Assembly (NCBI GenBank): GCA_963805825.1
Contig: CAWDVO010000022.1
Coordinates: 79,641-143,640, forward strand
Length of the DNA stretch: 64,000 nucleotides
Direction of reading: 5' to 3'
DNA from: Candidatus Brocadiaceae bacterium
GTDB lineage: Bacteria; Planctomycetota; Brocadiia; SM23-32
A program made the translations under genes and the position numbers. Of the stretch, positions 3,156 to 29,542 are shown in pieces. A model generated the notes under the pieces. That model saw nothing but the letters and a program-made list of their open reading frames with translations, made no database searches and had not been told where the DNA came from. How positions within the stretch are numbered: position 1 is the stretch's first letter; the number at the start of each line of letters is the position of its first letter.

Positions 3156-3295
3156 CGGGGCTGCCCGTCCGGGGCGTCCGTGCTGAAGCCCAGGCCGCCC
3201 CGGTAGAAGCGGATCGAGACGGCCGTGTCCCGGACGCCGAGGGAGATGATGCTGATGCGCGGCTCCGTGCCGCCCCTCCTGCCGCCCGCCCCCGC

Positions 3296-7087: not shown

Positions 7088-7456
7088 GAGTCACAAGACT
7101 GCGGCTGTCGAAACGTACAATGTCCCCGTCGGCTCGTGCCCTGCGGCACACGCGGGACCAACAAGAACGCGAAGCGCCCCCGGCAGGAACTACAGGTTGC
7201 CCGTCCGGTACCCGTCCCCCACTACGCAGCGCCCCCAACGTCCCAAGAAGCTCGATACATCGACGTTAGCGGACGCCGGCGGACATGTCAAGGCTTCGTG
7301 CGCGCCGCATCACGAGTTTCCGGTGAGCGCCGCGCGCCCGGTCCCCTTTGACGCCGCCCCGTGCCTGGGGCATAATGCCCCTCCACGGGGAACGCCGGTT
7401 CGGCACATGGCCGGCGGCCGAGCCGTGGGGACTGGGTCGAGGAGGGCTGTCCCGCG

Positions 7457-8314
7457 ATGGGCAATGTCTGGGTGGCGCTGGGGCTGACCGTCTTCGCCGG
7501 CATGGCCACCGGCATCGGCAGCGCCATCGCCTTCTTTGCCCGCAGGACGAACTACCGCTTCCTCTCGGTGGCCACCGGTTTCTCGGCCGGCGTCATGCTC
7601 TACGTCTCGTTCGTCGAGATACTGCGCAAGGGCGCCGACGCGCTCACGGCGGCCTACGGGGACCGATGGGGCCCCTGGGTCAACGTCGCCGCCTTCTTCG
7701 GCGGCATCGTCCTGATCGGCCTGATCGACGCCCTGATCCCATCCGCCGAGAACCCGCACGAGACGCACTCCCCCGGTGAGATGGCCCCGCTGCGCACCGC
7801 GTCCGCCCCGCCGGACGAGCGCGACCACCCGCCGCACGACGCGAAACTGATGCGCATGGGCCTCTTCACTGCGCTGGCCATCGGCATCCACAACTTCCCC
7901 GAGGGGCTGGCGACCTTCCTGGCGGCCCTGGAGGACCCGGGGGTCGGCGTGGCCATCGCCCTGGCCATCGCGCTGCACAACATCCCCGAGGGCATCAGCG
8001 TGTCCGTGCCCATCTACTACGCCACCGGCAGGCGTGGGAAGGCGTTCGTCTGGTCCGTGCTCAGCGGCCTGGCCGAGCCGGTGGGCGCCGTGCTGGCCTA
8101 CGCGGCGCTTCGGTTCCTGATGGGCGGCGAGGCGGGCTTCGTGCCGCCGCAGATGATCGGCACGCTCTTTGCCGGGGTGGCCGGCATCATGGTCTACATC
8201 AGCCTGGACGAACTCCTGCCCACCAGCCGCGCCTACGGCAAAGGCCACGACAGCCTGCTGGGCCTGATGACGGGCATGGCCGTCATGGCCCTGAGCCTGC
8301 TGCTGATGAGGTGA
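7457..8314 (+). CDS. zupT: ZIP-family zinc transporter ZupT
   Basis: 285 aa: [27 protein letters not shown]...[10 protein letters not shown]...[19 protein letters not shown], with a His-rich cytoplasmic loop (HETHSPGEM...HPPHD). Classic ZupT/ZIP architecture. Confidence 0.85.
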
Positions 8315-8904
8315 CGCAGCCCCTTCGGGCCTTACCGTGCATACCTGCGGAGCCTTCCAAGCTGCCCGTTGTGACGGGGCGGCCGGGGCGCCGGCTCCGC
8401 CGCCCACGCCGACGGGCATGGTATGTGCCGGGAAGCCAGGCGCCTGACCCGGGGAATACAAAGAAGGCCCTACCCGCGGCACAGCCGGTGAGGAACCCAA
8501 CCCATCGCCGTCCCATCGACACATCTCTTGCGAGTGGCTATGCCGTCGGACTACAATGCCTCGCTCACAGTTGGTTTGCAGGACGAACACCCGGCCGTTC
8601 CGGGTGGGCGCCGTCCCGGAGGGGGATGGGCCCAACAGATGGTGTTCTACTGAGATGGTCTGGAGAGTTGGCGAACCGAGCCGCAGCCCGAGCGGCTCCG
8701 GATCCGGTCGGTTTCTGCCGAAGTGCCCGCTGTCCGCGGGCAGCGCCGGCGTCGCGCTCCGCAACGCGACGCCCCCCGTTCCCCTCGGCCCCGCCCCGAC
8801 GCACCAATCACCAGCAGGCCTCTGCCCCCGCCCCTCGAAGGAGATCGTGCGCTCTTGCCATTCACGAGGGACAGCTCCCGGCGGCCATCGCCAAGGGGGG
8901 CAAC

Positions 8905-9432
8905 ATGGGAGTTGAGGCCAATGCTGACTCCGGCGACGTCCTGGCCCTCAAGAGGGAAGGCACGCTGCGGGCGAGCGCGATAGGTTCGTGCGTGGTGGTG
9001 GCCGCATACGACCCGGACAGCGGCGTGGGCGGGATGGCGCACGTGATGCTGCCGGGCGCCCCCTGCGGTCCGCGCCACCCGAGGAAGACGATCTACGCCG
9101 AACCGGCGGTGGAAGAGATGATCGGCCGGATGTCGGCCCTCGGTGCGGAGCAGGAGCGCATACGCGCCTGCCTGGTCGGCGGCGGCAACCTGCTGGGTCC
9201 GGGCCACGAGGCCCCCGGCGTCCAGACCGTTGAGTCCCTGAGAGGCACCCTCGACGGACGGGGGATACCGATCATGGCGGAGGACGTCGGCGGAACGCAG
9301 AGGCGCAGTTGCATGATGGACGTGGCCTCCGGACGTGTCGCATACACGGTGGGCGGTTCGGAACAGAAGGAACTCTGGCGGTCCGGCTCCGGCCGGAAGA
9401 CGCCCGGTGACGGTAGTAAGGGGACAGCATGA
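8905..9432 (+). CDS. cheD: CheD-like chemoreceptor glutamine deamidase family protein (orphan)
   Basis: C-terminal 175 aa of ORF 8311..9432 from ATG 8905 (AAGGGGGG SD 5 nt upstream): MGVEANADSGDVLALKREGTLRASAIGSCVVVAAYDPDSGVGGMAHVMLP...CLVGGGNLLG...IPIMAEDVGGTQRRSCMMDVASGRV matches the CheD fold signature (SCV.V..YD...GG.AH.MLP ... GG..R). ATGA overlap with the downstream kinase start. Confidence 0.65.
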   Translation: MGVEANADSGDVLALKREGTLRASAIGSCVVVAAYDPDSGVGGMAHVMLPGAPCGPRHPRKTIYAEPAVEEMIGRMSALGAEQERIRACLVGGGNLLGPGHEAPGVQTVESLRGTLDGRGIPIMAEDVGGTQRRSCMMDVASGRVAYTVGGSEQKELWRSGSGRKTPGDGSKGTA

Positions 9433-12400
9433 AACAGAAGTCCAACGCGGAACTCGTCGAGGAACTCGAACAACTCCGGCGTCGCGTCGCCGACCTGGAG
9501 TCCGAGGGCGGTGCGCACCCGCCGCCCGGGGACGAGCCGGCCGGCAAGAACCGGTACCGCGAGGTCGTCCGAACCTCCATGGCCGGCTTCTGGCTCATCG
9601 ACATGGAGGGGCGGTTCCTCGACGTGAACGCCGCGTACTGCCGCCTGAGCGGCTACAGCCGCGAGGAACTCCTCCGGATGCGTATCCGCGACGTGGAGGC
9701 CATGGAGACGCCCGAAGAGACGGCGCGTCACATAACGGCGATTACCGAAGAGGGTTACGACCGCTTTGAGACAAAACACCGGCGCAAGGACGGGGCGACC
9801 GTCGACGTGGAGGTCAGCGCCAGCCTCTCGGACGTGGAGGACGGCCGGATCGTCGCCTTCGTGCGCGACATCACAAGGAGCAAACGGGCCGAGGAAGAAC
9901 TCACGGCAGCATACCAGCAGCTCCAGGCGAGCAATCAGCAACTGAAGGCCACCGAGCAGCAGCTCCGCGCCTCCAACCAACAGCTCGAGGCGAGCAACCG
10001 GCAGTTGCGTGCGGATGAAGAGGCGCTGCGCCGGAGCGAGACGCTCTACCGCCGCCTGGTCCAGCACCTCCCCCAGCGCATCTTCATCAAGGACCGCAAC
10101 TCGGTCTTCGTCTCCTGCAACGCCAACTTCGCCCACGACAGCGGACTTGAGCCGGAGCAGGTCATCGGGAAGGACGACTTCGCCCTCTACCCGCGCGAAT
10201 TGGCCGAGGCCTACCGGGCCGACGACCGCGCAGTGATGGAGGCGGGACAGCCGAAGGTCATCGAAGAGCCCGTCCCGGCGAGGGGAGAGACGCGCTGGGT
10301 ACACACGATCAAGGTGCCCTTCCACGACGAACGGGGGAACGTGATCGGCGTGCTGGGCATCTTCGAGGACGTCACGGAGCGCAGACAGGCCGAGGAGAGC
10401 GCCAGGCTGCTGGCGACGATAGTGGAGAGTTCCGAGGACGCCATCCTGAGCAAGACCCTCGACGGCGTCGTCACCTCGTGGAACGCCGGCGCCGAGAAGC
10501 TGTACGGCTACCCGGCAGAGGAGGCGGTCGGGCGCCGCATTGCCTTCCTGGTCCCTCCCGACAGGACGGACGAACTCCCCGAGATACTGAGGCGCCTGGC
10601 CAGGGGCGAGCTGGTGGAGCACCTCGAGACCGTCCGGGTGCGGAAGGACGGCACTGTAGTGGAGGTCTCCCTGACCGTCTCCCCGATCAAGGATGAGTCC
10701 GGGGGTGTCGTCGGCGCCTCGTCCATCGCCCGCGACATCACCGAGCGCAAGCGGCGCGAGGAGCGAAACCGCCTGACCCGCGAAGTGCTGGAAGAACTCA
10801 CCCGTCCGGGCACGGCGGCCGATTCGGCCCGCAGCGTCCTTAAGCTGATCGGGAAGGGGCTGGATTTCGAGGCGACGGGCATTCGCCTGCGCGACGGCGA
10901 TGACTACCCCTATTGCGAGACCAGCGGCTTTGACGACGAATTCGTGGAACTCGAGCGGCACCTGTGCGTGCGCGACCGGGCGGGGGACGTCGCGCGCGAC
11001 ACGAAGGGCAACCCCGTCCTCGAGTGCATGTGCGGCAACGTCATACTCGGCCGCGTCGACCCCAGCCTGCCTTTCTTCACCGAGGGCGGGAGCTTCTGGA
11101 CCAACAGCACGACGGAACTACTGGCGTCCACGACGGAAGCGGACCGCCAGGCGCGCACCCGTAACCGGTGCCACGGCGAAGGCTATGAGTCCGTGGCCCT
11201 CATCCCACTGCGGTCGGGCAGTGAGACCGTCGGCCTGCTGCAGCTCAACGATCACCGGTGGGGCAAGTTCACTCCGGAACTGGTCCAGTACCTCGAAGGG
11301 CTGGGCGTCACCATCGGCATTGCCCTCGCCCGCGAGAGGGCTCAGGAGGAACTCGAAGCCGTGGCCAGGTTCCCGTCCGAGGACCCCTCCCCCATCCTGC
11401 GCATCAGCGAGGACGGCAACCTGCTCTACGTGAACCCGAAAGGCGCGGAGCTGCTGACTCACTGGCGCCTGAAGGCCGGTCAGCCGGCCCCGCAGACGCT
11501 GCGCGACGTCGCCGACAGGGCGTTGACGGACGGGACGGCGCAGGCTGTCGAGATCGAGCACGACGGGCGGCTGTACCTGTTCGACGTCGTGCCGCTGGCG
11601 GGCGCCGGCTACGCCACTCTGTACGGGCGCGACATCACCGGACTCAGGCGGGCTGAGGACGCGCTGCGCCGCAGCGAGCGCAAGTTCCGCGCCATGGTGG
11701 AGAACGTGGGCATCGGCGTGGCCCTGATCGCCCCGGACATGCGCATCCTGGAGCTGAACCGCAAGATGCACGACTGGTTCCCGCAGGTCGACACGACGGC
11801 CTACCCGCCCTGCTACAAGGTCATCCAGCACCCTCCGCGCCAGGAGGCGTGCGAGGCCTGCCCGGTCCGGGCGACGCTGGACGACGGCCAGGTCCACGAG
11901 GCCACCAAGCGCCTCGCCACGCCACTGGGGGACCGCATCTTCCGCATCGTTTCCACTCCGGTGCGCAACGACCAGGGCGAAGTCACCGCCGCCATCCAGA
12001 TGATGGAGGACATGACGGACCACCTTTCCATGGAGGACCAGCTTCGCCAGGCCCAGAAGATGGAGGCCGTCGGCCAACTGGCGGGCGGAGTCGCCCACGA
12101 CTTCAACAACCTGCTGACGGGGATCGGAGGGTTCGTGGGCTTCGCGCGCGACGCCGTGGAACTGGGCTCCCCGGCCTACGACGACCTGGGTAAGGTGCTC
12201 GGCCTGGTGGACCGGGCGGCCGCCCTGACCCGCCAGCTCCTGGCGTTCAGCCGCCGGCAGATGCTCGAGCCGGTCGTCCTCGACGTTAACGAACTCCTGT
12301 CCGAGCAGGTCAAGCTGCTGAGGCGCCTGCTCGGGGAGGACATCGACCTGCAGTTCGCGCCGGCGCCCCAACTCCGGAACGTGTGTGCCGACCCCGGCCA

Positions 12401-13172
12401 GATCGAGCAGATAGTCCTGAACCTGGCCGTCAACGCCCGCGACGCCATGCCCACCGGCGGCCGGCTGATCATCGAGACCGCCGACGTCGAACTCAGCGAG
12501 GACTACGTGCGCGAGCACGCCGAAGCGACCGGCGGGCCGCACGTGATGATCGCGATGAGCGACACGGGCTGCGGCATGGACGCGGAGACCAGGCAGCGCA
12601 TCTTCGAGCCCTTCTTCACGACCAAGGAGCGCGGCAAGGGGACGGGGCTCGGCCTTGCCACGGTCTACGGCATCGTGAAACAGCACAACGGCAGCATCCA
12701 GGTCTACAGTGAGGAGGGCAAGGGAACGACGTTCAGGATCTACGTGCCCAGCGTCGGCCGGCAGGCGGAGGAACGGCCGACCCGCACCGAGTTCATCACG
12801 GGAGGGACGGAGACGATCCTGCTGGTGGAGGACGAGGAGGCCATCCGGGCGATCAGTTGCCGGCGTCTGGAACTGCTGGGCTACGACGTGCTCTGCGCCG
12901 CCGGACCCGACGAGGCCGAGCAAATGGCAGCCGAACACGGCGGCCCGCTCGACCTGCTGCTGACCGACGTCGTCATGCCGGGCCGCAACGGCCGTGAGCT
13001 GTATGAGTCGCTGCAGTCCAGGCAGCCCGGCCTCAAGGTGCTCTATATGTCAGGCTACACGGACAAGGCGGTCCTGCGCGACGGCCTGCTGGGCGAACAT
13101 GCGGGCATGCTCCAGAAGCCCTTTGGACAGCACGACCTGGCAGCCAAGGTGCGCCAGGCGCTGGACCGGTAG
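9429..13172 (+). CDS. hybrid sensor histidine kinase: coiled-coil, multiple PAS/PAC domains, Cys-containing GAF-like domain, HisKA, HATPase_c, C-terminal receiver
   Basis: 1247 aa. N-terminal coiled coil plus heptad repeats ([31 protein letters not shown]). Several PAS-like blocks. GAF-like region with CETSGF...CVRDRAG...ECMCGN...[17 protein letters not shown]-box [19 protein letters not shown]-boxes GCGMD and [18 protein letters not shown] domain [11 protein letters not shown]...[18 protein letters not shown]. Confidence 0.85.
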
Positions 13173-13174
13173 CC

Positions 13175-14560
13175 TCAAGCGCGCGTCATCTCCGCGCTCA
13201 ACTCCGGCTGCGGCAGGTAGGCCCCGTTCTCGCGCAGCGTCGTCACCAACCGCGCCGTGTCCAGCTCGCAAGCGGCCCGGCCCGTGGCCAGCGACTGCAC
13301 GGCCGCCGTGCCCGCGGCCTGGCCCATCATCGCCGCCGCCGGCATCACGCGGATGGAGCCGTGTACCTGCACGTCGCTGGAGTTGCAGCGCCCCGCCACC
13401 CACAGGTTCCGCCAGCCCTTCGGCACCAGGATGCCGTACGGTATGCCGTGGCACTCGCCCGGCCCCAGCCGGCCCGTCACGTCGCGCTCGCGCAGGTGGC
13501 GCTCCCACTCCTCGTCCGAGCAGTCGTAGATGTGGATGTCCACGAACTTGTTGAAGACACCGATCTGGTCCGGGAACTGCCGGCGCGCAAGGTAGTCGTC
13601 GACCGTCAGCTGGTACTCGCCCACGATGCGGCGCGACTCCCGCACGCCCATCAACGCCCCGGTGCCTACGCACTGCAGCCCCTCGCAGCCCGGAACGTGC
13701 TTCCGGAGGAACTCCACGAACTCCTGCACGAGCCGTCGCCCCTGCGCCATGCCCTCGCTCAGGTCCCGGCAGCGGCAGGCGTTCAGGCCGAAGACGTGCC
13801 CCCCGTTCAGGTAGCCCACGCCGCCGGAGACCGGGCTCATCCCGGGCAGATGGCGGTCGAACTGCGTGAACTCGCCCGCCGACAGGGCCCTGCAGTATTC
13901 GTTGTACACGTTGACGCCGCTCGCCCGCACCGCGGCCCAGTCGATGTTCGCGTGGAGGGACGCCAGGGTGGCCGGCATGATGTCCTCGGTGTCCCGCCCC
14001 GCTTCCCGGTAGGCCGCCCCGCAAAGCGCCGAGAGCACGGCGTCGCCGGTGGCGTCGATGAACGCGCGGGCGGGCACGTAGCGGTAGCCCTCGATGTTGT
14101 GCAGCACGACCCCGCCGACGCGGCCCTCCTCGGCCGCGGCGTCGGCGTCGATCACGCGCGTGAAGAAGCGCACCTCCACCCCGCTCCCGGCGGCCAGCTC
14201 GTCGAGGAGCAGCTTCAGCCCCTCGCCGCTGAACTGCGTCCAGCGGTGGTAGTGCTTCCGCCACGTGTCAGGCTGCACGCCCTCGGCCACGAAGCCGCGC
14301 TCGTGTAGCGTCTCGACCAGCTCGCGCATGAACCCGCCGACGAGCATCCTCTCGCCGTCGGCCATCGGGTCGAAGGCGTTGACCATGCCGGAGGTGCCCA
14401 TGCCGCCCAGGCACCCGGTCTGCTCGACCAGCAGCACGTCCGCCCCCAGCCGCGCCGCGCAGATGGCCGCCGCGCTCCCCGCCGGCCCGCCCCCGGCCAC
14501 GACGAGGTCATACTCCCGATCCACGGCGACATCGCGCACCAACTTGAAGGTCTCAGCCAT
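13175..14560 (-). CDS. FAD-dependent oxidoreductase (FAD_oxidored/PF12831-like)
   Basis: 461 aa: MAETFKLVRDVAVDREYDLVVAGGGPAGSAAAICAARLGADVLLVEQTGCLGGMGTSGMVNAF. Rossmann GxGxxG dinucleotide-binding motif. Antisense ORFs 13050..14264 and 13361..14308 are shadows. Confidence 0.75.
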   Translation of the reverse strand: MAETFKLVRDVAVDREYDLVVAGGGPAGSAAAICAARLGADVLLVEQTGCLGGMGTSGMVNAFDPMADGERMLVGGFMRELVETLHERGFVAEGVQPDTWRKHYHRWTQFSGEGLKLLLDELAAGSGVEVRFFTRVIDADAAAEEGRVGGVVLHNIEGYRYVPARAFIDATGDAVLSALCGAAYREAGRDTEDIMPATLASLHANIDWAAVRASGVNVYNEYCRALSAGEFTQFDRHLPGMSPVSGGVGYLNGGHVFGLNACRCRDLSEGMAQGRRLVQEFVEFLRKHVPGCEGLQCVGTGALMGVRESRRIVGEYQLTVDDYLARRQFPDQIGVFNKFVDIHIYDCSDEEWERHLRERDVTGRLGPGECHGIPYGILVPKGWRNLWVAGRCNSSDVQVHGSIRVMPAAAMMGQAAGTAAVQSLATGRAACELDTARLVTTLRENGAYLPQPELSAEMTRA

Positions 14561-18227: not shown

Positions 18228-19640
18228 GGAGATACTCTTGAATGTTGTTGACGGAGGGAGGTGAGCGTATCTTTCGGGGAATGTCGCATTCGTTTCCCTG
18301 AGAGGCTCTCGCCAGAGGGCCAAGGAAGGATACGCTCGATGGGCAAGGATAGCGTGGTGGAGCTGCGAAAGCGAGTGGAAGCCGAGTCCAGGTCCACCCT
18401 GGACGAGACCCTGAGGCGGGGAGCCGAGCGCATGCTCCAGGTGGCGATCGAGGCGGAGGTGGCCGGCTATGTCGAGCGCCACGCCGCCCTGGTTGACGAC
18501 GAGACGGGCCGCCGCCTGGTGGTCCGAAACGGCCATCAGCGGGAGCGCACGATCCAGTCAAGCCTCGGCGAGGTACTGGTCACCAAGCCGCGCGTGCACG
18601 ACCGGCGTGAGGGCGAAGGGTTCACCAGCAGCATCCTGCCTCCCTACCTGCGTCGCACGCCGGCGCTGGAGGCGCTGATCCCCATCCTCTACCTGAAGGG
18701 CGTCTCGACCAACGACTTCCCCGAGGCGCTCTCGGCCATCCTGGGCCAGAATGCGGCCGGGCTCTCGGCCAGCACCGTGAGCCGCCTGAAAGACGTGTGG
18801 CAAAGGGAGCACGAGGAATGGGCGGGGCGCGACCTTACGGGCAAGCGCTACGTCTACTGGTGGGCGGACGGCGTCCACTTCAAGGTGCGCCTCACGGACG
18901 AGCGCCCGTGCCTGCTGGTCATCGTGGGCACGCTCGAAGACGGCACGAAGGAGCTGGTGGCCATTCAGGACGGGGAGCGGGAGAGCACTCTTTCCTGGCG
19001 GGAGCTCTTGAGGGAACTGAAGCGAAGGGGCATGGCCCAGGCCCCTGCCCTGTGCGTTGCGGACGGCGCCCTGGGCCTGTGGGCGGCGATGGCCGAGGAA
19101 CTGCCGGCGGTCAAGGAGCAGCGCTGCTGGGTGCACAAGACGGCCAACGTGCTCGACAAGATGCCGAAGAAGGTGCAGCCGGCCGCCAAACGCCTCATCC
19201 AGGAGATGTACATGTCGTCCACCAGGGCAGCCGCGCTGGAGGCTTACGAGGAGTTCCTGGCGCTCTACGAGGCGAAGCACCCGAACGCCTGCGCGTGTCT
19301 GAAGAAGGACAAGGACGTGCTCTTCACCTTCTACGACTTCCCGGCCGAGCACTGGAGACACTTGAGGACGACCAACCCGATCGAGAGCACCTTTGCCACC
19401 GTGCGGCACCGCAGCCGCCAGACGAAGGGATGCGGCTCGCGAGCGGCCACCTTGGCAATGGTTTTCAAGCCGGCGCGGGAGGCCGAGAAGACCTGGCGTA
19501 AGCTCAACGGCTACGAGCTGATCGCGAAGGTCATCCGGGGTGTGCGATTCGAGGACGGTGTGGAGGCGCGAGAGGCCGCGTAAACGGAGAGCCCGAAGGG
19601 TGCGCCAACACCTCCATCAACAACATTTGACAGTATCTCC
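18228..19640 (+). mobile_element. IS256-family insertion sequence, complete, with imperfect ~30-bp terminal inverted repeats and flanking direct repeat
   Basis: Left end GGAGATACTCTTGAATGTTGTTGACGGAGG (18228-18257). Right end CCTCCATCAACAACATTTGACAGTATCTCC (19611-19640), about 26/30 complementary. Flanked by direct repeat CTCCTTGAGCAGG (18217-18229 and 19637-19649), consistent with an 8-9 bp TSD partly overlapping the IR ends. Confidence 0.8.
18339..19583 (+). CDS. IS256-family (Mutator-like) transposase
   Basis: MGKDSVVELRKRVEAESRSTLDETLRRGAERMLQVAIEAEVAGYVERHAALVDDETGRRLVVRNGHQRERTIQSSLGEV...WWADGVHFKVR...LVAIQDG...CWVHKTANVL is characteristic IS256 transposase sequence, about 414 aa. The track ORF starts at 18261; the in-frame ATG at 18339 was chosen. 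Confidence 0.85.
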   Translation: MGKDSVVELRKRVEAESRSTLDETLRRGAERMLQVAIEAEVAGYVERHAALVDDETGRRLVVRNGHQRERTIQSSLGEVLVTKPRVHDRREGEGFTSSILPPYLRRTPALEALIPILYLKGVSTNDFPEALSAILGQNAAGLSASTVSRLKDVWQREHEEWAGRDLTGKRYVYWWADGVHFKVRLTDERPCLLVIVGTLEDGTKELVAIQDGERESTLSWRELLRELKRRGMAQAPALCVADGALGLWAAMAEELPAVKEQRCWVHKTANVLDKMPKKVQPAAKRLIQEMYMSSTRAAALEAYEEFLALYEAKHPNACACLKKDKDVLFTFYDFPAEHWRHLRTTNPIESTFATVRHRSRQTKGCGSRAATLAMVFKPAREAEKTWRKLNGYELIAKVIRGVRFEDGVEAREAA

Positions 19641-20626
19641 TTGAGCAGGGCCAGTGCCCGGTACAGGATCGGGTCTTCGCGAGGCAGTTCCAGAGGAGTG
19701 GTGGGGACGTGCACGTCAGGCTGTATCCCGCGCCCCTCGAAGCACGTCCCGTCCAGAAGCAGCGCCTGCCAGCAGGGCAACATGACGGTGACGCCGTTAC
19801 AGAGCGCGTAGGGCTGCGGGTTGCCAGAACTGCCGTATGAGGTCTCGCCCACGAGTACCAGCCGCGCACTCGCCTCATCATCAATAAGAAAGCCTCACTA
19901 CTGCTCCTGGTCGCCTGCCCCATGAGCACCGCGGTCTGGGCGCCGTAGTGCGGCCGGCCCCGTGTCGGCGCCAGCACTCTGTCCCATGGTGTGCTGAAGC
20001 CCGAACTGGCGCACGGGTCGCGTAGCTTGTGCCGCGCATAGACGACAGGCTCTCGCACAAAGCACCCAGCGAAGTGTTTGGCCACATCCTCCGAGCCGCC
20101 GCCATTGCTGCGCACGTCGACAACCAAGCCGCCCCCTTGCGAGAAGTTGTTGAGAGCCTCGAATGCGGGCTCCAACTCGAGGACTCTGTCCGCAGACCAA
20201 GTGCCTATCATGACGTACCCGATACCGTCTCCGAATCTGCCGACATAAACGCAAGGACTCGGGTGCGACCACTCGGCGGCGGCCCGCCTAAGAGTCTCAA
20301 GGTTGTAGTTGGGGACCACGTCCGGAGCGAAGCTCAGGAACGTCTCGCCGTCGACCTTCAGCGAGATGTGGGGGTCTCTGGCGTGCCCCAGGAGCAGGGC
20401 CGCCGCCCTCGCGAAGGCGTAGGGGGAATCAGCCCAAAGCAGGGACGCTGAATGCTCTTCGAAAAGACCGGCCCAGTCCAGGGAGTGAAGGCGATAGTAA
20501 GAGTATGAGTAATCAACTATGTCCTTCAGTTGGGCGGCGGCCGCCGTGTTGCGGGCACGACATCGGGCGATGTCGCGAAAGGAGGCAACCACTGCCCCGA
20601 TGCGGGTCCGGAGGTACCTGGCAGCA

Positions 20627-21058
20627 TCATTCATCCGAAATCCGGATCTGCCCCTCGAGGGATCTTACCAGATCTCGCCTAAACTCGGCGGCCGCCTTGC
20701 ACTTGCCGTGCCACAGCCAGTCGTGGAAGTGGAACTTCTCTGGACATTCCGGATTACTACACGCACGTACAGGGAAGTCCCGACAGACCTTGGGCCGCAC
20801 GTCATAGATTACGCAGAATGCCTTGCCATCGCGATGGTCCAGAAACGGGCACTCCTCTTTGCGCCACGGCTCATCCCCGTTGTCCGGATCGATCAGACGC
20901 CCACAGCACGGACAGATGTCCTTGAGCACGTCTTCCCTGCCGAGAGAGCGCCATCGTTCAATGTCGTCGCGGTGCACCATGTTGCGCAGCCATGCACCAC
21001 CTTTGCAGCACGACCCGCAGCGCTGGCATTTCCATGACAAGTCTGCCTTCGTTCTCAT
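20627..21058 (-). CDS. YkgJ-family CxxCxxCC (PF03692-like) zinc/iron-chelating cysteine-cluster protein
   Basis: 143 aa: MRTKADLSWKCQRCGSCCKGGAWL... with C-x2-C-x2-CC plus further Cys/His (CPCCGRL, CPF, CSNPEC). 8-nt overlap with the downstream S41 start; 24 nt after the B12-rSAM stop. Confidence 0.6.
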   Translation of the reverse strand: MRTKADLSWKCQRCGSCCKGGAWLRNMVHRDDIERWRSLGREDVLKDICPCCGRLIDPDNGDEPWRKEECPFLDHRDGKAFCVIYDVRPKVCRDFPVRACSNPECPEKFHFHDWLWHGKCKAAAEFRRDLVRSLEGQIRISDE

Positions 21059-22845: not shown

Positions 22846-24078
22846 TCAGTTCGCTTTCCGCATGACACGAACGGCCAGCAGCACTGAAAGCCCAACCACG
22901 ACGACTGCTGCGCCCAGTCCCCACGGCAGCCAGTTCCCGGCCGGCGCAACTGGGACAGCGGCAACCGGCGCAGCACGGGGTTCTCGGACTTCAGCCGGCC
23001 CGCCCTCGGGCGTGTGCGTGAAGGACTTCGCTGGCAGCGCCGCTGGGGCACCGGCACCGGCAGAGGAGCTAGCAACCTCCAGGAGCGCGCCAGGGCGTGG
23101 CTCCAGGACCGCGTCTGTCCTGTCTCTTGCCGCGGCCAGGAGTTGCTTTGCTGTGCCGGCCATGTGGTGGGTGGGGAACCGGGCCAAGTAGGTCTCGAAC
23201 CATCGCGCTGCCTCCGAGTATAGTCCCGCATGGAACGCCGTCTCCCCAAGCCGGTAATAGAGGGCCGCCAATGCCGGATCGACCCGGTTGTCGCGCAGTT
23301 CCGATTCGGCGACAACGTCAAACTCATACAGCCGCAAGCTGCCAGGCTCCTGCACGATCCCGGGTGTCTCCAGCGGGAAGAAGTAGGCGGCCCGACATAT
23401 CCAATCCCTGTTCCTATAGGACCGGATCAGCTGCCGCTCCCCTTCCATGAAGCCCGCTCGATCGCTCTTGTATTTCGTGAGGTAAACTTCGAGCAGTTGG
23501 CCCAGGAACAGCGATTGCTGCACTTGCCAGTCCTCCGTTCCGCCCTGCGATGCCTCTTCCAGCAAAGCGTTCCCCGCCGACAGAATGCTCAATGCCGTGC
23601 TGTCTGAACCAAGTCGGACTGCAGTCCGGGCATTTTGCAACAGCATGCGCCCCGCAGAACCGCACTCCTGCGACAGAGCAGTCCCCCCTCCCTCCACCAG
23701 GCCGGCAACGGTCTTGCTGCATTCAGCCAGTTCAGCAATGTGCTTCTGACGTAGCGCAGCCAAAGCGGCCCCGCTGGCTGCTGCCGTCTGGAGGTCACGG
23801 ACATGGTCGAGCTGCGCCGCCAGCTCCCCATACTGCAGCAATTTCAGATGCTGCACCGTCTCGTCCTGCGTTCCGCCGGTCGAAAGTTCGCCGATCTTCG
23901 TCATTTGGCGGGTAATGAGTTCTGCCGCCTCGCCAAGACGTCCGCCTGCGATCAGTTCGACAGACTGTCTCCGGGTCTGGAACATCTGCCCCACAAGCTC
24001 TCTCGCGGTCTCGGCGGATGCCGTTACGCAGAGCGACACGACTACCGCGATGGCTACAGGAATGCACCGCCGTTTCAT
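22846..24078 (-). CDS. membrane-anchored periplasmic protein with N-terminal signal peptide, TPR-like helical region and C-terminal TM anchor
   Basis: 410 aa. MKRRCIPVAIAVVVSLCVTASA signal. TPR-like YYRLGETAFHAGLYSEAARWFETYLARFP. C-terminal WLPWGLGAAVVVVGLSVLLAVRVMRKAN. Confidence 0.55.
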   Translation of the reverse strand: MKRRCIPVAIAVVVSLCVTASAETARELVGQMFQTRRQSVELIAGGRLGEAAELITRQMTKIGELSTGGTQDETVQHLKLLQYGELAAQLDHVRDLQTAAASGAALAALRQKHIAELAECSKTVAGLVEGGGTALSQECGSAGRMLLQNARTAVRLGSDSTALSILSAGNALLEEASQGGTEDWQVQQSLFLGQLLEVYLTKYKSDRAGFMEGERQLIRSYRNRDWICRAAYFFPLETPGIVQEPGSLRLYEFDVVAESELRDNRVDPALAALYYRLGETAFHAGLYSEAARWFETYLARFPTHHMAGTAKQLLAAARDRTDAVLEPRPGALLEVASSSAGAGAPAALPAKSFTHTPEGGPAEVREPRAAPVAAVPVAPAGNWLPWGLGAAVVVVGLSVLLAVRVMRKAN

Positions 24079-24094: not shown

Positions 24095-25045
24095 CTACGC
24101 TGTGAAACAGACGGCAACTATCGCGCTCCCAATCACGCCTGTCGTCAGATTCGCGACCGTCGGGTCATCGTCCGCGCCGCAGCTATGAGTATAACACGAG
24201 TCGAAGTCAATGCCAAGTAAACAGCCGTCACTCGGACCGCATACGTTTGAAGTCCCACATGTGTTGCTTGCAGGCTTCCCGCACGTGTTCGTTGGCTCAC
24301 AGAAGTCCTTCTCGCAGTAATTCGTAACGTTGCAGGAATTCTTGAGTTCACACTCGTTGTCGTCCATGCAGACGTTCTCATCGTCGCATGAGTTCAGTCC
24401 CCAGCAGTGATCTCGAGTCGCGCAGGCATTAGCAGCTTCACAGTTGTCCGTGCCACCGCACAGATCATAGTCACACTGATCTGTCGAGGAACACGTGTCC
24501 GTTCCACTACAAGCGTTAGTGCCCGCGCAGATGTCTGACACGCAATTGTCATTGACCCAGCATGTATTGTAGCCCTTGCATCCGTCGCTGCTCTGGCAGT
24601 AATCGGTCGCGCAGTTGTTGCTGCTGCCTGTGCATGTGTCATATGCCTGGCAGTGATCGTCCTTCCCGCAGTCATTACGTCCCTGACAATAGTCACCGCT
24701 GGCACACGAGTCGTTCGTGTTGCACGTGTTCGTGACAGTGCAGGTGTTGCTCGTCGTACAATTATCCGTCGTCTCGCATGTGTTGTAAGTGCAGTTGTTT
24801 GTGCCGGAGCACACATTGGACGCGTTACATGTGTTCGTCGTACACGTCTTCGTTACCAAACACGTGTCAGAGCTGGTGCACGTGTTTGAGCCGCACGTAT
24901 AGGTTGGAGTACAGTTACAGTCTGCATCGGCTGCCCTCGGAGCCACGCCGCTGCCAACCAGCATGAGCCCTCCGACAGCCAGCGCCGTCTGCCCTACTGA
25001 GACGAGGAAACGCCGCCGACTACTCCGGTTCTCGTTCCGCTCCAT
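24095..25045 (-). CDS. Tat-signal cysteine-repeat protein: about 43 Cys arranged as about 40 consecutive C-x4/5 repeats rich in T/N/D/S; candidate substrate of the adjacent radical SAM/SPASM enzymes
   Basis: 316 aa. MERNENRSSRRRFLVSVGQTALAVGGLMLVGSGVAPRAADA is a twin-arginine signal. Then CNCTPTYTCGSNTCTSSDTCLVTKTCTTNTCNASNVCSGTNNCTYNTCETTDNCTTSNTC... continues for about 260 aa with Cys every 5-6 residues. About 18 C-x3-D and several C-x3-N motifs. Ends in a hydrophobic tail TVANLTTGVIGSAIVAVCFTA. Confidence 0.7.
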   Translation of the reverse strand: MERNENRSSRRRFLVSVGQTALAVGGLMLVGSGVAPRAADADCNCTPTYTCGSNTCTSSDTCLVTKTCTTNTCNASNVCSGTNNCTYNTCETTDNCTTSNTCTVTNTCNTNDSCASGDYCQGRNDCGKDDHCQAYDTCTGSSNNCATDYCQSSDGCKGYNTCWVNDNCVSDICAGTNACSGTDTCSSTDQCDYDLCGGTDNCEAANACATRDHCWGLNSCDDENVCMDDNECELKNSCNVTNYCEKDFCEPTNTCGKPASNTCGTSNVCGPSDGCLLGIDFDSCYTHSCGADDDPTVANLTTGVIGSAIVAVCFTA

Positions 25046-25125: not shown

Positions 25126-26322
25126 TTACCATGTCCAGTGAAAGACCCAATCATGCAGCTGACTGTAGAAGGGGGGATCACTCTCACTTAGCCAGGCGAG
25201 ATGGCTCGCGATGGAAGCATGGACCACCCTCATCGCCTTACAATACCCAGAACCGGGGTCGAACAGGTCACCGTTGGTCTGCCAATTTGCTGCCGGGCAC
25301 CCACCGCCGCAGAACACTGCTGCCTCGCAGTTCGAGCAGTCTGACTTCAGGTCCTTGCGCACATCCACGGTCAGGAAGGCCCCCCGGCGATCGGGATGCC
25401 AGCCGCCGCCGGTATGGCCAATCAGCCATTCTTCTCTGGCTTCGATACCATTGAACCTATGGCATGGCCAGAGAAAGCCCTCGACGTCGACATGCAAGAG
25501 GCCCCGGCCCGCCCCGCAGGGCGCCGGCTGCATCGGCTGTCCATCACGCTGTACATACCTGTCCAGCCAGGTAAGCGAGTAGAACCTGCCTGCATTCTTC
25601 ATGCGTTCGGTGTGGATCCGCAGCACTTCCCGAGTTTGCTGAGCGAGCACCTCAAGTCGGTCAGCCGATTCCCACGCCGCAGAATGAGCAAGGTCGAACG
25701 CCACCTTCAGAAAGCCCTTGTCCAAGAAGTACGCGAAGCTCTCCGCCATCCGGTCCACCGTTTCCGGCACAACCGTGCTTCGAGCATGCGTTGTCCTCCA
25801 CGCCTTGAAGATACGCCGGAGGTTGCGCTCAACGGTCGCCGAGCTTCCCGTGCCGTCGGGATAGACGCGGGCGGCGTCCTGGACCTCTGGCACCCCGTCG
25901 ATCGACGAATGGATGCCTATATGCCAGAAGCGGAACAGCTCAAGATGCTCTTCAGTGAAGCGCGTCAGATTCGACGTGATGCCCACCGTCAGTTCTTTGT
26001 CGCGCTGACGACAGTAGTTGACGGCGAACGGCATCCAGTCTCGCAATGTGTCGAAGGCACACATCGGTTCGCCGCCCAACACCGAGATGTGCAGTTGTTC
26101 AGCGTCGCCCGAGTGCTTCACAAGCCATCGCACCATCTGCTTGGCGGTCTCCATGCTCATCCGGCGACGGAGCATGTCTCCCTTGAAGCAGTACGTGCAC
26201 CGAAGGGTGCATTCCTCCGTGAAGTCGACATCGAGCGACCTCACGGGCATCTCAAGAGGCGAGGGCCCTGTCTCCGGGAACGCTATGCGTTTCTTGAACA
26301 GAGTGCTCTCAAACGTTGGCAT
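25126..26322 (-). CDS. radical SAM / SPASM-domain enzyme (anSME/PapB/QhpD-like peptide-modifying family)
   Basis: 398 aa. CTLRCTYC (C-x3-C-x2-C) at residues about 38-45. C-terminal SPASM motifs CGAGRG...WPCHRF...CSNCEAAVFCGGGC...YCKAM. Confidence 0.75.
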   Translation of the reverse strand: MPTFESTLFKKRIAFPETGPSPLEMPVRSLDVDFTEECTLRCTYCFKGDMLRRRMSMETAKQMVRWLVKHSGDAEQLHISVLGGEPMCAFDTLRDWMPFAVNYCRQRDKELTVGITSNLTRFTEEHLELFRFWHIGIHSSIDGVPEVQDAARVYPDGTGSSATVERNLRRIFKAWRTTHARSTVVPETVDRMAESFAYFLDKGFLKVAFDLAHSAAWESADRLEVLAQQTREVLRIHTERMKNAGRFYSLTWLDRYVQRDGQPMQPAPCGAGRGLLHVDVEGFLWPCHRFNGIEAREEWLIGHTGGGWHPDRRGAFLTVDVRKDLKSDCSNCEAAVFCGGGCPAANWQTNGDLFDPGSGYCKAMRVVHASIASHLAWLSESDPPFYSQLHDWVFHWTW

Positions 26323-26977
26323 CTGCGTGCTCCATGGCAGCCGGCGACACGGCCATGTGTTCCAGGCGCACTTGCCCCTTGCTGCAGACCCAATGGCTGC
26401 GGGTGCCCGGCCGGGCTGTGGGCTCGTGCTGAGAGGTGAGGTCCGAGAGGAAGCCCTCCATAAGGGACTTCCGCATCTGGCATCTCAGCGCGAATGCACG
26501 GTCGTCGCTGGCAGCCGCAGGGCCGCCCCCAGCCAGCAGGTGGCATTCGCCGCCACAGAAGTAACGGAGCGCGCACTCCCCGCACTCAGTCCTCAGGGAT
26601 GGGGCCTGGTCTGCCGGTTCGAGCAGGGACCTCCAGCGCTCCTCTGACTGCGGTGCCAGTTGTGACGGTCTTCGGCGGCATTCCCATAAACAGCGCCCAA
26701 CGCGGCCGTCGCCATGCACGTAGACCGCCAGCCCGCACGCAGCCCGGCATCCGTGACAGTTCGGGTAAGCCCCGAGCCGCTTTCGCAGCAGTTGGTACAG
26801 TGTGTTCTGCGTCAGCGGAGGCCTGTCGCTGCCAACAACGTGGTCAAGTATCTGCTGGATCTGATCGGGCGCGGGCAATTGAAGCTCGGTACGCCGCTGC
26901 CGGTATCTCTGGCGTGCGAAGAGGTATGCTAAGAGAATAGAGGAAGCTCTCCCCCCACCTGTCCCAGAGCGTATCAA
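26309..26977 (-). CDS. Cys-rich protein with SPASM-like motifs but no recognisable radical SAM core
   Basis: 222 aa with NCHGCRAACGLAVYV...CLWEC...CGECALRYFCGGEC. Overlaps the 287-aa gene by 134 bp and the rSAM start by 14 bp. Could be a stand-alone accessory protein or the 3' half of a frameshifted gene. Confidence 0.4.
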   Translation of the reverse strand: MIRSGTGGGRASSILLAYLFARQRYRQRRTELQLPAPDQIQQILDHVVGSDRPPLTQNTLYQLLRKRLGAYPNCHGCRAACGLAVYVHGDGRVGRCLWECRRRPSQLAPQSEERWRSLLEPADQAPSLRTECGECALRYFCGGECHLLAGGGPAAASDDRAFALRCQMRKSLMEGFLSDLTSQHEPTARPGTRSHWVCSKGQVRLEHMAVSPAAMEHADANV

Positions 26978-27707
26978 GCGCCTCGCGAAGAACGCCGGAT
27001 GTGCGTCGGCTCAACACGAAAACGACGTTCAACAGAAAACCCCGTTCGATAAGGTAGTCGAGCCCTGATAGATGCTCTTCGCGCAGGATGCCACTGAGGA
27101 AGAGGCTCATGCGCACGTTCGGAACAATGAACATGCTGAGCTTCTTCACATCGGAAACCGCCACCTGCAAAGGCATGTCAAGGTAGTATGTGATTGGCCT
27201 CTGCGGCCCTCCGCCGAACGCACGACGGATGAAGGAGACCACAGGGACCAGTCTGTCATACAGCGACTTGCGGGCGTCAACACGGTTACAGATGAACTTA
27301 ACGTTGATTGGAGGCCCGCCAGGAAAGATGTCCCTGCATGCTTGCGCGCACGCCTCCAGCGAACGAAGCACCTGGCGCCGATTTGTCTGCGTGGTATCGA
27401 TGCGGATTGTCAGCGGGTCCGGACCGCGACTGTCTTGAGCGTCGCGTGTGCCGTTACAGGGAGCTGAGTCCCCGTCATGCTCAGGAACTATGATCCGATG
27501 GTCAGAGAGGAAGGAAATGAGGCCAGTCGCCAAGCTACCCAGATCACCAGCGCGTAGTGAACTCAACAGCGCTTCCGCCTCGCTGCCGCGGGCCACGGAT
27601 AGCGACAGGATGGAATTCCGACTGATTGAACAAGTAGCAAGTGCCGTCCGCGCTGTGGTAGGCCACGAGCCGGCCGGCTGTTCGGAAATGCTTCGCCGCG
27701 GACTCAC
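26844..27707 (-). CDS. hypothetical protein, first gene of the radical-SAM operon
   Basis: 287 aa, no recognised motif (one C-x3-C, CAQACRDIF). Start at 27707 lies 28 bp from the terminal IR of the IS427-like element. Confidence 0.4.
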   Translation of the reverse strand: MSPRRSISEQPAGSWPTTARTALATCSISRNSILSLSVARGSEAEALLSSLRAGDLGSLATGLISFLSDHRIIVPEHDGDSAPCNGTRDAQDSRGPDPLTIRIDTTQTNRRQVLRSLEACAQACRDIFPGGPPINVKFICNRVDARKSLYDRLVPVVSFIRRAFGGGPQRPITYYLDMPLQVAVSDVKKLSMFIVPNVRMSLFLSGILREEHLSGLDYLIERGFLLNVVFVLSRRTSGVLREALDTLWDRWGESFLYSLSIPLRTPEIPAAAYRASIARARSDPADT

Positions 27708-27735
27708 ATGGCGACGACTTGTCTTGAACTCTCAT

Positions 27736-28750
27736 AGGGCTCTGTAGAAAACCTACGGATCGGTAGTTAGAGGATCATGAGGTCGTGTGTCAGGACGCGG
27801 ACATAGCACTCGGCGTGACGCATGGCCCGCTTGCGCGCTCTGAGGCTGTCGCCCAGCCGCCGCTTGTGCTGGCTGATGGCGCTCTCGACGTGCGAGCGTT
27901 GGGCGGCCTTGCGCACCGGGAAGTGGCTCTTCATCTGACGCCTGTAAGGGCCCTTCGGCCTCACCTGCGGCCGTCCTCGGTCGTTGATGGGGATGATGGT
28001 GCAGGCGATGCCCAGCTCTTCCCTGCACAGACGGTGATGGGCCTCCGAGTCGTAGGCCGCGTCGGCGTAGAGGGTGTGGATGCGGAGCCGGCCTGCGGCC
28101 GCCCGCACCAGCGGCGGCAACAGGGGCGACTCGTTGCCCGGGCCGGCCCGCGCCAGGGCAGAGGCAAACATGTGCGTGCTGTGCTCGCAGAGCAGGGCCA
28201 GGCGCGGGAAAGGCGTGTAGCTCGAGGTGCGCCGTCCCGTGCGGCGCAGGTAGTAGGGGCTCACATGCCCGCTCTCCAGTCCCGTGGCGTCGACGGAGAC
28301 CTCGGCCTGCTGCGGTATCAGTCCGCGCTGTGCCGCGCGGGCGAGAGCAGCATCGAACAGAGGTCCCCAAAGCCCCTTTTTTCCAGGCGCTGCTGGGCCT
28401 TCTGCACGGTGGTGAGATGGGGGAGCTTCTTCAGGTGCAGGGCGTCTCTGAGCGCAGGCAGGTCGGCCAGCAGCTGCACCATGCCCCGCCAGTCGGTCTT
28501 GAAGAACTGCCGCAGCACCATGATGGCGAAGAGCTGGGAGAGCGTGAAATCGTGGCGCGAGCTGCTGCTGCCATAGCGTGGCAGGCCCTCCTCGCCGAGG
28601 GCGAGGGCCTCCTGGGCGAGGGCCAGCGGGGACTTGCTCATGCTGCGCGAACTGGGCATCGGCCGGCTCCCGTAGGGAAGTCTCTGTGGCCATAGCTGCT
28701 TTACTTGTGCCCATTCGCCGACCCCTAAGTCAAGTTTTCTACAGAGCCCT
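27736..28750 (-). mobile_element. IS5-family (IS427-group-like) insertion sequence, 1015 bp, perfect 17-bp terminal inverted repeats AGGGCTCTGTAGAAAAC, flanked by CTCAT direct repeat
   Basis: Left AGGGCTCTGTAGAAAAC at 27736-27752. Right GTTTTCTACAGAGCCCT at 28734-28750 is the exact reverse complement. CTCAT at 27731-27735 and 28751-28755. Two overlapping transposase ORFs inside. Confidence 0.75.
27767..28659 (-). CDS. IS5-family transposase, orfA and orfB joined by a putative -1 frameshift at an A6G run
   Basis: orfA (about 114 aa from ATG 28659): ...SSRHDFTLSQLFAIMVLRQFFKTDWRGMVQLLADLPALRDALHL (DUF4096/InsH N-terminal-like). orfB in the -1 frame has a DDE domain ...VSVDATGLESGHV...LYADAAYDSEAHHRLCREELGIACTIIPINDRG. 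Slippery site CTGGAAAAAAGGGG on the minus strand (A run = complement of 28377-28382). Confidence 0.7.
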
Positions 28751-29006: not shown

Positions 29007-29276
29007 CTAAGTGACTATAGAACCACCCGCATCACGCTCTCGCTCTGGTTTGCCCGCATTCTCATCCAACCGGACGGCGTCCATGACCTCCTTCTCGACC
29101 TGCTCCTTGAGGCCCTGCGCCTCGCCGACGCCTCTCTTGAACTCAACGACGCTGCTGCCCAGCGAGCGAGCTATCTTCGGCAACCGCGTGCCGAAGAGCA
29201 GCAAGACTATTCCTCCGATGAGGATCAGTTCCCATGTTCCAAGCGGACCAACTACGGCGATGACAAAGGACCCCAT
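29007..29276 (-). CDS. tatA: twin-arginine translocase subunit TatA/TatE
   Basis: MGSFVIAVVGPLGTWELILIGGIVLLLFGTRLPKIARSLGSSVVEFKRG matches the TatA TM helix plus amphipathic helix signature (LLLFG..KLP...LG....FK). Start may be 29294 (MKEDSGM...). Confidence 0.7.
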   Translation of the reverse strand: MGSFVIAVVGPLGTWELILIGGIVLLLFGTRLPKIARSLGSSVVEFKRGVGEAQGLKEQVEKEVMDAVRLDENAGKPERERDAGGSIVT

Positions 29277-29290
29277 GCCACTGTCCTCCT

Positions 29291-29542
29291 TCACACCTTT
29301 ATGTTGTCAACGTCGAACTGCTGGATGACCAAGGTTGCGCCCAAGTCACTGGCGACCTTCTTCATCTCGTCTTTCAGGCGGGCACACTCCGGGCATGACT
29401 CGCCCGAAAAGGCGCAGGCGTGGATGACCGGCTTGGCTAGCGGGTCGCAGCGACCGGAAGAAGACGCGCATACGACGAACAGAGCCACAGCAGCGCTCAG
29501 GGCCAGGAAGCGGGCCGCTGTTCTGTCGTGGCTTCTCCGCAT
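29291..29542 (-). CDS. small secreted thioredoxin/glutaredoxin-like protein with CPEC motif
   Basis: 83 aa. Signal-like MRRSHDRTAARFLALSAAVALFVVCASS, then CAFSGESCPECARLKDEMKK...ATLVIQQFDVDN. A C-x2-C in a thioredoxin-like context; low-confidence fold call. Confidence 0.4.
   Translation of the reverse strand: MRRSHDRTAARFLALSAAVALFVVCASSSGRCDPLAKPVIHACAFSGESCPECARLKDEMKKVASDLGATLVIQQFDVDNIKV

Follow-up and report, generated by a model that had tools for sequence, protein, structure and literature searches.

A Tat-signal cysteine-repeat protein family linked to a radical SAM/SPASM enzyme in Planctomycetota, a possible substrate for repeated thioether cross-linking

What is the purpose of a protein that carries a cysteine every five or six residues, begins with a twin-arginine translocation (Tat) signal, and is encoded next to a radical S-adenosylmethionine (rSAM) enzyme with a SPASM domain? 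Such a gene is found in a Candidatus Brocadiaceae bacterium, in a 64,000 nucleotide (nt) stretch of contig CAWDVO010000022.1 that is termed the window here and whose positions are used throughout. The answer offered is tentative and is held at somewhat short of an even chance: the Cys-repeat protein would be the substrate of the rSAM enzyme, which would place one Cys-to-Asn/Asp thioether in each repeat, in the cytoplasm and before export by Tat.

The Cys-repeat protein, its family and its linkage to an rSAM gene

The original prediction described a 316 amino acid (aa) Tat-exported protein, and the open reading frame (ORF) is found with exactly the predicted ends, on the minus strand (Table 1). 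A strong Shine-Dalgarno sequence, GGGAGGTGA, lies 6 nt 5′ of the ATG. The N-terminal sequence MERNENRSSRRRFLVSV is followed by a hydrophobic region and then by A-D-A, the predicted signal peptidase site. This arrangement has the pattern of Tat substrates (the S/T-R-R-x-F-L-K type, a hydrophobic region and AxA), here in the form S-R-R-R-F-L-V and A-D-A, with an n-region of 8 residues. In alignments of 20–23 relatives R10 and R11 are invariant and F13 is nearly so, and weak Pfam TAT-signal matches are present in six family members; the signal is as typical as had been predicted. The array's Cys begin at residue 43. The mature part is strongly acidic (37 D/E versus 8 K/R) and has almost no hydrophobic residues. 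The C-terminal hydrophobic tail is possibly a membrane anchor or a sorting signal; similar tails are found only in the closest homologues, at loci L003, L004 and L006.

The repeat protein gives no match in sequence searches of Pfam, NCBIfam and the PDB, nor in a word-indexed search of 5.8 billion proteins, and neither the exact window protein nor its exact L003 homologue is present in a collection of 15 billion proteins. The original prediction had taken it to resemble no known protein, which agrees with these searches. An exhaustive phmmer search of 1.84 billion representative sequences gave 19 matches at E ≤1e-3, with a maximum of 56 bits, and 17 of these are Tat-signal Cys-repeat proteins; a family-profile search added only five further proteins, all annotated as hypothetical. 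Literature searches on the repeat-protein family found nothing relevant. Gene calling itself may miss the family: in L002 the repeat gene (6730–7647, plus strand) is miscalled, and the annotated product is a 118 aa sequence in another frame (7127–7483). The family has no name, is rare, and for the most part is absent from protein databases.

The family was assembled from the enzyme side. A total of 68 rSAM homologues, 28–62% identical to the window enzyme, led to 52 loci taken from genomes and metagenomes. A six-frame scan showed a Tat-signal Cys-repeat ORF beside the rSAM gene wherever enzyme identity was 31% or higher and the flanking sequence was long enough. The ORF is missing only from short contigs, from a clade at 28% identity (L044–L046) and from two weak partial matches. 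There are 23 non-redundant loci with enough flank, all of which carry both the rSAM gene and the repeat protein (19 detected by BLAST and 4 by motif), with the repeat ORF on the same strand and within approximately 4 kb of the enzyme gene. The reverse approach gives the same result, as the independently found repeat protein P0073 has an rSAM gene 650 bp downstream. A common annotated family occurring without rSAM neighbors would have spoken against the original prediction; what is found instead is a rare family linked to the enzyme in 23 of 23 loci.

The hosts are metagenome-assembled genomes (MAGs) of Phycisphaerae, Pirellulales, Planctomycetales and Planctomycetaceae, together with one Hydrogenedentes MAG. 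The suggested search for the Cys-array architecture in other Planctomycetota thus found it in several groups of the phylum. Only seven loci were found among 185,579 species-representative genomes. Precursors of the family are 150–440 aa in length and carry 13–60 repeat units, the window protein having about 42.

In distant-clade precursors (L018, L021, L024, L026, L028, L032, L034 and relatives) a conserved segment of about 25 residues precedes the twin arginines, with the pattern M..D.LK.L...L.A.D..ER..R...MSRRWF. This segment may be a leader peptide embedded in the Tat n-region.

The repeat motif and the affinities of the enzyme

The window precursor contains 44 Cys in about 42 units of C-x3-[D/N]-x, slightly more than the approximately 43 Cys and 40 repeats first estimated. 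Successive Cys are six residues apart in 30 cases and five in 8, and spacings of 7, 8 and 9 occur once each; a peptide such as DCTSSDTCLVTNTCTTNTP would represent two to three repeats. The motif C-x3-D is present 14 times and C-x3-N 15 times, giving 29 for C-x3-[D/N], while [D/N]-x-C is present 38 times. A count of about 18 had been predicted for C-x3-D; this is not borne out, and 18 is the count for D-x-C. Asn or Asp is found two positions before 38 of the 44 Cys, compared with an N/D composition of 26% (p = 1.4e-16). There is no 12- or 18-residue superperiod in the window precursor by unit-level autocorrelation. The TRF program finds no tandem repeat at the DNA level in the gene; thus the periodicity is maintained at the protein level and does not reflect a recent expansion.

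The same bias is seen in 38 family proteins with a total of 916 Cys. Asn or Asp is present at position −2 of 82.3% of these Cys, against a background of 24%. Elsewhere around Cys its frequency is 58% at +4 and 31% at +3, and no other offset between −5 and +5 exceeds 16%. The preference at −2 persists whether neighboring Cys are 5, 6 or 7 residues apart. In 116 long units, N/D is present at −2 of the next Cys in 74% but at +4 of the previous Cys in only 22%, which is background. The −2 spacing is invariant, whereas the distance from Cys to a downstream N/D ranges from 3 to about 10. Family-wide, Asn is roughly three times as frequent as Asp at the acceptor position and Glu is absent; the window protein is unusually Asp-rich. 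For the original C-x3-D/E motif the evidence is divided: the freyrasin layout and the array ends agree with it, but Asn outnumbers Asp by about 3:1 and N/D-x-C (82%) is more regular than C-x3-[D/N] (58%).

The ends of the arrays carry a different signal. Arrays start with a Cys 1–3 residues after the AxA site, and only 3 of 37 proteins have N/D at −2 of this Cys. After the last Cys, N/D stands at exactly +4 in 24 of 37 (p = 2e-7), with x-Pro next in seven. The distant members L009, L029 and L039 retain N-x-C only. The idea that N/D-x-C is the only meaningful unit was withdrawn after the array-end analysis and in view of the freyrasin core layout. L009 also displays two tandem paralogous precursor genes (11176–12174 and 12844–14373, plus strand) with near-identical N-termini and long spacers.

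The rSAM gene lies upstream of the repeat gene, with 80 nt between them. As predicted, its product is a 398 aa SPASM-type rSAM enzyme: a Cx3Cx2C motif is present at residues 38–45 (C38, C42 and C45), and seven Cys follow the SPASM pattern (269, 287, 329, 332, 338, 342 and 361). The SPASM model TIGR04085 gives 47 bits, with a cut-off of 27. The proposed scan against family models showed the following affinities. The best NCBIfam model is PapB (NF047865; 217.4 bits, E = 3e-64, below its cut-off of 340), followed by a nif11-type model (185 bits), QhpD (TIGR03906; 170.7 bits, cut-off 453) and SCIFF (128 bits), all below cut-off. Further maturase models score 114 (CXXX-repeat), 113 (CcpM) and 65 bits (Cys-every-fifth). 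Models for the anaerobic sulfatase-maturating enzyme (anSME; TIGR03942) and for cyclophane synthases give only 63 bits (cut-off 349) and 53–65 bits, respectively. Among PDB structures, CteB (5WGG, 7.7e-30), a thioether synthase, matches best.

The predicted likeness to PapB and QhpD is thus upheld in that these models are among the best and CteB is the nearest structure, but not in full, as all scores are below the family cut-offs and the enzyme has no recognition element (RRE) for peptides made on ribosomes and modified after translation (RiPPs). It aligns to RRE-bearing models only from profile positions of about 74–98 and starts approximately 37 residues before the SAM cluster; it is therefore without a recognition domain. 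Distant-clade enzymes are 420–450 aa in length, with an N-terminal extension that is absent from the window enzyme, and one of them gives 237.6 bits with the PapB model.

A partner gene lies upstream of the enzyme gene. The partner is an rSAM/SPASM-like protein whose SPASM match is sub-threshold, but profile comparison with full-length rSAM/SPASM enzymes extends over 255 columns (hhalign probability 81%, E = 1e-5). It is homologous to a protein of about 410 aa that adjoins the distant-clade rSAM gene (hhalign 96.7%, E = 3.6e-10), which makes the partner a third core gene; it occurs in 18 of the 23 loci. In L003 the three core genes lie at 462–1814, 1819–3021 and 3091–4410.

A proposed cross-linking reaction, its precedents and its alternatives

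Given the strict linkage, the affinity of the enzyme to thioether synthases and the presence of one Cys and one N/D per unit, a Cys-to-Asn/Asp thioether is the most economical reading. The rSAM enzyme would work along the repeat array in the cytoplasm and abstract a hydrogen from the conserved Asn or Asp, most likely at C-beta; that carbon would then be joined to the thiol of a Cys bound at an auxiliary Fe-S cluster. At one ring per repeat, this would amount to about 40 thioether rings in the window protein and 13–60 in its relatives. A freyrasin-like register is slightly favored, in which Cys would be joined to the Asn/Asp three residues (range 2–10) downstream, giving in-line rings with single-residue joints. 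A probable role of the SAM-cluster-less partner is to bind or present the long substrate, as the enzyme of this clade has no recognition domain of its own. The product would be rigid, cross-linked, very acidic and hydrophilic, and could not be threaded through Sec, hence the twin-arginine signal and export in folded form by Tat. It would end in the periplasm or envelope, perhaps held by the hydrophobic tail or trimmed by an S41 peptidase. A TatA gene in or beside the cluster, in the window and in L003, fits Tat export of a substrate cross-linked in the cytoplasm.

The nearest precedent is freyrasin of Paenibacillus polymyxa. Its precursor has six in-line C-x3-D units, beginning with CSANDA, and in each of them PapB forms a single thioether from Cys S to Asp C-beta; a two-ring core is 13 aa in length (PMC9413430, PMC8566587). 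The PapB model is the best one for the window enzyme, and the hexapeptide layouts correspond (C-x3-[D/N]-x versus C-x3-D-x). PapA, however, is a leader-bearing peptide with six units, whereas the repeat family consists of much longer Tat-signal proteins with many more. The system here also differs in its sub-threshold enzyme score, in the missing RRE, in an acceptor position that is mostly Asn, and in the addition of a dead-rSAM partner, TatA, a B12-rSAM protein and an S41 peptidase. Membership in the ranthipeptides shows the same division. The Cx3Cx2C motif of that class and its seven SPASM Cys, which serve two auxiliary clusters, are present in the window enzyme, but a 316 aa precursor with a Tat signal is not a short leader-core peptide, and the enzyme has no fused RRE. 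A ranthipeptide-like system with a Tat-exported repeat protein as putative substrate is thus partly supported.

QhpD is an rSAM/SPASM enzyme that forms Cys-Asp/Glu thioethers within a protein subunit bound for the periplasm (PMC10114670, PMC8172795). Its substrate QhpC is, like the repeat protein, no small peptide, and QhpD is the third-best enzyme model; unlike the window precursor, QhpC bears three cross-links, lacks repeats and belongs to an enzyme complex. The streptococcal rSAM-RiPP enzyme NxxcB forms a thioether between Cys and the C-beta of an Asn that lies upstream, and Asp is tolerated there as well (PMC9389541). Both the N/D interchange and the order, with N/D before Cys, are as in the repeat family. 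NxxcA, however, is a short quorum-sensing-linked peptide (shp/rgg) with a single N-x-x-C (i, i+3), whereas dozens of N/D-x-C (i, i+2) are present here. The comparison with PapB is by family model and published description, and those with NxxcB and PapA are by published description.

Triceptide enzymes (OscB/GrrM, XncB) form i/i+2 rings onto Asn/Asp C-beta in repeat-containing precursors (PMC11002830). Their bond is a C-C bond from an aromatic residue and not a C-S bond from Cys, and the GrrM/OscB model gives only 53 bits with the window enzyme. The uncharacterized Cys-repeat rSAM targets described by Haft (CXXX-repeat, CefA/CefB and CcpM) also place a SPASM maturase beside a peptide with regularly spaced Cys, but they differ in period, motif, size and Tat signal, and the window precursor matches no NCBIfam model.

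Several observations weigh against the proposed reaction. PapB requires a carboxylate, and Asp-to-Asn variants are not cross-linked (PMC8172795), yet Asn dominates the acceptor position here; this is thus not PapB chemistry as such, and the acceptor specificity must differ. The N/D-x-C spacing is the invariant one, also in the 116 long units, and agrees better with the opposite register. The score of the enzyme reaches no curated family cut-off. The window cluster shows two frameshifts in the partner gene, one in the S41 gene, and two transposase genes at or inside it; the copy is possibly inactive, or the assembly possibly error-prone. An AlphaFold2 model of the precursor, as had been suggested for the repeat region, predicts no autonomous repeat fold (mean pLDDT score 39.9); as a low-confidence model built on an alignment of only 23 sequences it proves nothing, and it is, as weak evidence, compatible with a chain that needs cross-links.

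The same enzyme and chemistry could also operate in the opposite direction, from Cys to the Asn/Asp two residues upstream, which would give three-residue rings with variable linkers. This is unlikely, though far from negligible. The N/D at −2 is the strongest signal in the family (82.3% versus 58% at +4 and 31% at +3), it holds at Cys spacings of 5, 6 and 7 and in the long units (74% versus 22% at +4), and distant members such as L009, L029 and L039 keep N-x-C alone. The upstream Asn used by NxxcB (PMC9389541) and the i/i+2 rings made by triceptide enzymes (PMC11002830) are precedents for both direction and ring size. Cys-to-upstream rings would, however, leave an orphan first Cys in nearly every array (N/D at −2 in 3 of 37) and an orphan yet conserved N/D at +4 after the last (24 of 37, p = 2e-7). 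In addition, the nearest enzyme families, PapB, QhpD and SCIFF/CteB, all place Cys upstream of the acceptor (PMC9413430, PMC8172795). The array ends and these families slightly favor the Cys-first register, and the variable downstream spacing has a counterpart in PapB, which tolerates 0–6 intervening residues (PMC9413430). A different reaction on the repeat protein, whether a sactionine at C-alpha, attack on another residue or an anSME-like Cys oxidation, with the conserved N/D as a recognition or structural residue, is considered quite unlikely. Similar SPASM sequences do catalyze diverse reactions, full-length similarity is insufficient to assign function (PMC10288494, PMC10114670), and the enzyme is below all curated cut-offs. 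But the anSME and cyclophane models score 63 and 53–65 bits versus 217 for the thioether model, and the stoichiometry of one Cys to one N/D indicates these two residues as partners. A sulfatase-type motif (C/S-x-P/A-x-R, here sought as C-x-[PA]-x-R) is not found in the repeat protein, and with the anSME score far under cut-off the sulfatase reading was rejected.

Other explanations leave the enzyme a lesser part. The original prediction offered a disulfide-laddered beta-helix like insect Thr-Cys antifreeze proteins; worked out further, this would be a beta-solenoid of the Tenebrio molitor antifreeze protein (TmAFP) type, oxidized after export, with the rSAM enzyme unrelated or only tailoring. 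In TmAFP, too, Cys recurs at six-residue intervals, the sequence is rich in Thr/Ser/Asn and there is no hydrophobic core, and the only PDB matches of the family profile are scytovirin (E = 0.015) and, second, TmAFP (1EZG; E = 0.076, 15 bits); a small exported CPEC-motif protein is also encoded beside TatA (29291–29542). Neither PDB match is significant, and both reflect mostly compositional bias. A homology to TmAFP was rejected as compositional, the comparison with a TmAFP sequence giving 2.8 bits with 42 bits of bias. TmAFP is a secreted eukaryotic protein without an rSAM enzyme; it displays a 12-residue superperiod with paired Cys and, as aligned, has no N/D at −2. The 12- and 18-residue superperiods are absent from the window precursor, AlphaFold2 predicts no solenoid, and Cys counts are as often odd (20 proteins) as even (18), so that an all-disulfide design is not indicated. 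The solenoid would moreover leave unexplained both export by Tat and the strict association with a cytoplasmic rSAM enzyme, and it has lost ground to the point of being very unlikely. The least probable alternative supposes a polycysteine protein that binds metal or Fe-S, takes up its load while still in the cytoplasm and is then exported by Tat in folded form; the SPASM proteins and a CxxCxxCC protein would serve in cofactor insertion. Tat substrates are typically cofactor proteins, several Fe-S-type proteins are encoded in the cluster, and the precursor is rich in Cys and Asp/Asn. Ferredoxin-type CxxCxxCxxxC motifs are absent from it, however, its Cys being single and evenly spaced; no metallothionein or other Pfam match is found; and the rSAM enzyme keeps a full SAM-cleaving cluster and groups with peptide maturases.

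Other genes of the cluster and implications

The genes from approximately 27735 down to 19511 are co-directional on the minus strand, with short gaps or overlaps (Table 1). The intact 450 aa partner orthologue of L003 matches the window in frames −3, −1 and −2 by tblastn, which shows two frameshifts, with breaks near 26885–26911 and 27566–27585. The window partner gene is either a pseudogene or the result of assembly errors.

Table 1. Features of the Cys-repeat locus, in window coordinates.
Feature	Position	Strand	Basis
Precursor gene, Tat-signal Cys-repeat protein	24095..25045	−	316 aa ORF and translation; Shine-Dalgarno sequence; homologous ORFs adjoining rSAM homologues in 23 loci
Twin-arginine signal peptide (predicted), residues 1–41	24923..25045	−	SRRRFL, hydrophobic region and A-D-A, from sequence
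Repeat array, residues 43–295	24161..24919	−	Approximately 42 units of C-x(2-4)-[D/N]-x, with C-G-A-D-D-D-P at the end
C-terminal hydrophobic tail TVANLTTGVIGSAIVAVCFTA	24098..24160	−	From sequence
Radical SAM/SPASM maturase, 398 aa, no N-terminal RRE domain	25126..26322	−	NCBIfam; Pfam Radical_SAM; Cys pattern
Partner, rSAM/SPASM-like without Cx3Cx2C, in three reading frames	26309..27735	−	tblastn with intact 450 aa L003 orthologue
TPR-like protein, 410 aa, N-terminal signal and C-terminal transmembrane segment	22846..24078	−	Weak TPR matches; sequence
B12-binding radical SAM protein, 613 aa	21083..22924	−	Pfam B12-binding and Radical_SAM
CxxCxxCC (YkgJ-type) Zn/Fe-chelating protein, 143 aa	20627..21058	−	Pfam PF03692, 7.4e-8
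Frameshifted S41 (C-terminal processing) peptidase, in two ORFs	19511..20634	−	Pfam
TatA/E-family translocase subunit	29007..29294	−	Pfam TatA_B_E, 1e-11
DDE_Tnp_1 transposase gene, between cluster and TatA	27767–28714	−	Pfam
Mutator/IS256-type transposase gene, abutting S41 gene	18261–19583	+	Pfam

Homologues of the TPR-like gene are found at the same position in L003, L004, L006 and L016, making it an accessory gene of the close clade. In seven distant-clade loci there is a conserved protein of about 360 aa with no family match (e.g. L018 8712–9788 and L025 12465–13553); it too has a signal at the N-terminus and a transmembrane segment at the C-terminus, and may be the counterpart of the TPR-like protein. 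The B12-binding rSAM protein has orthologues with 48–50% identity in L003, L004 and L016, and all its NCBIfam matches are far under cut-off; it is accessory and probably a tailoring enzyme. Its ORF as listed begins with GTG and shares 79 nt (22846–22924) with the end of the TPR-like gene, and the true start is probably further downstream, e.g. the Met of MQVILVNAP. L003 has a 140 aa gene at the position of the CxxCxxCC gene, the correspondence being positional only. The S41 peptidase profile is covered at positions 2–110 by the ORF at 19531–20634 and at positions 117–165 by an overlapping ORF in another frame (19511–19852); homologues are present near the system in L028, L034–L036 and L040. 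Among the neighbors scanned (TPR-like, B12-rSAM, CxxCxxCC, S41 and TatA) there are no matches of the quinohemoprotein amine dehydrogenase type.

Directly upstream of TatA, the 83 aa ORF at 29291–29542 (minus strand) gives no Pfam match. Its signal-like N-terminus is accompanied by a C-P-E-C motif, suggestive of a thioredoxin-like protein. In L003 a 451 aa ORF inside the homologous cluster (7606–8961, plus strand) displays a TatA domain fused to an EF-hand and an alpha/beta-hydrolase region. In L053 the rSAM gene is followed by glycosyltransferase family 2 and sulfotransferase genes (9475–11205, plus strand), an arrangement not seen in other loci; these are possibly extra tailoring enzymes.

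A further-reaching proposal, which is doubtful as it stands, is that the family forms rods of 13–60 thioether rings, an unrecognized class of ribosomally made structural protein that is exported by Tat in fully cross-linked form. Such a class would be produced by a ranthisynthase-like rSAM enzyme with a catalytically dead rSAM paralogue as its substrate-handling subunit, through Asn-directed C-S chemistry or a register not seen in PapB. On the planctomycete envelope the rods would be an oxygen-independent, reduction-proof counterpart of a disulfide-laddered beta-helix.

Thioether stapling by rSAM enzymes has so far been seen in peptides with one to six rings and in one small enzyme subunit, QhpC. 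RiPP-mining pipelines discard precursors of more than 600 bp as false positives (PMC10288494), and the family falls into this blind spot, being largely invisible both to protein catalogues and to RiPP miners. For enzymology it would offer a naturally iterative substrate with which to study processivity and Asn versus Asp acceptor specificity. If the proposed cross-linking is correct, the family extends stapling to whole proteins with dozens of rings and links RiPP-type chemistry to Tat export and to a dead-rSAM partner, and the repeat protein would be a candidate component of the envelope of Planctomycetota.

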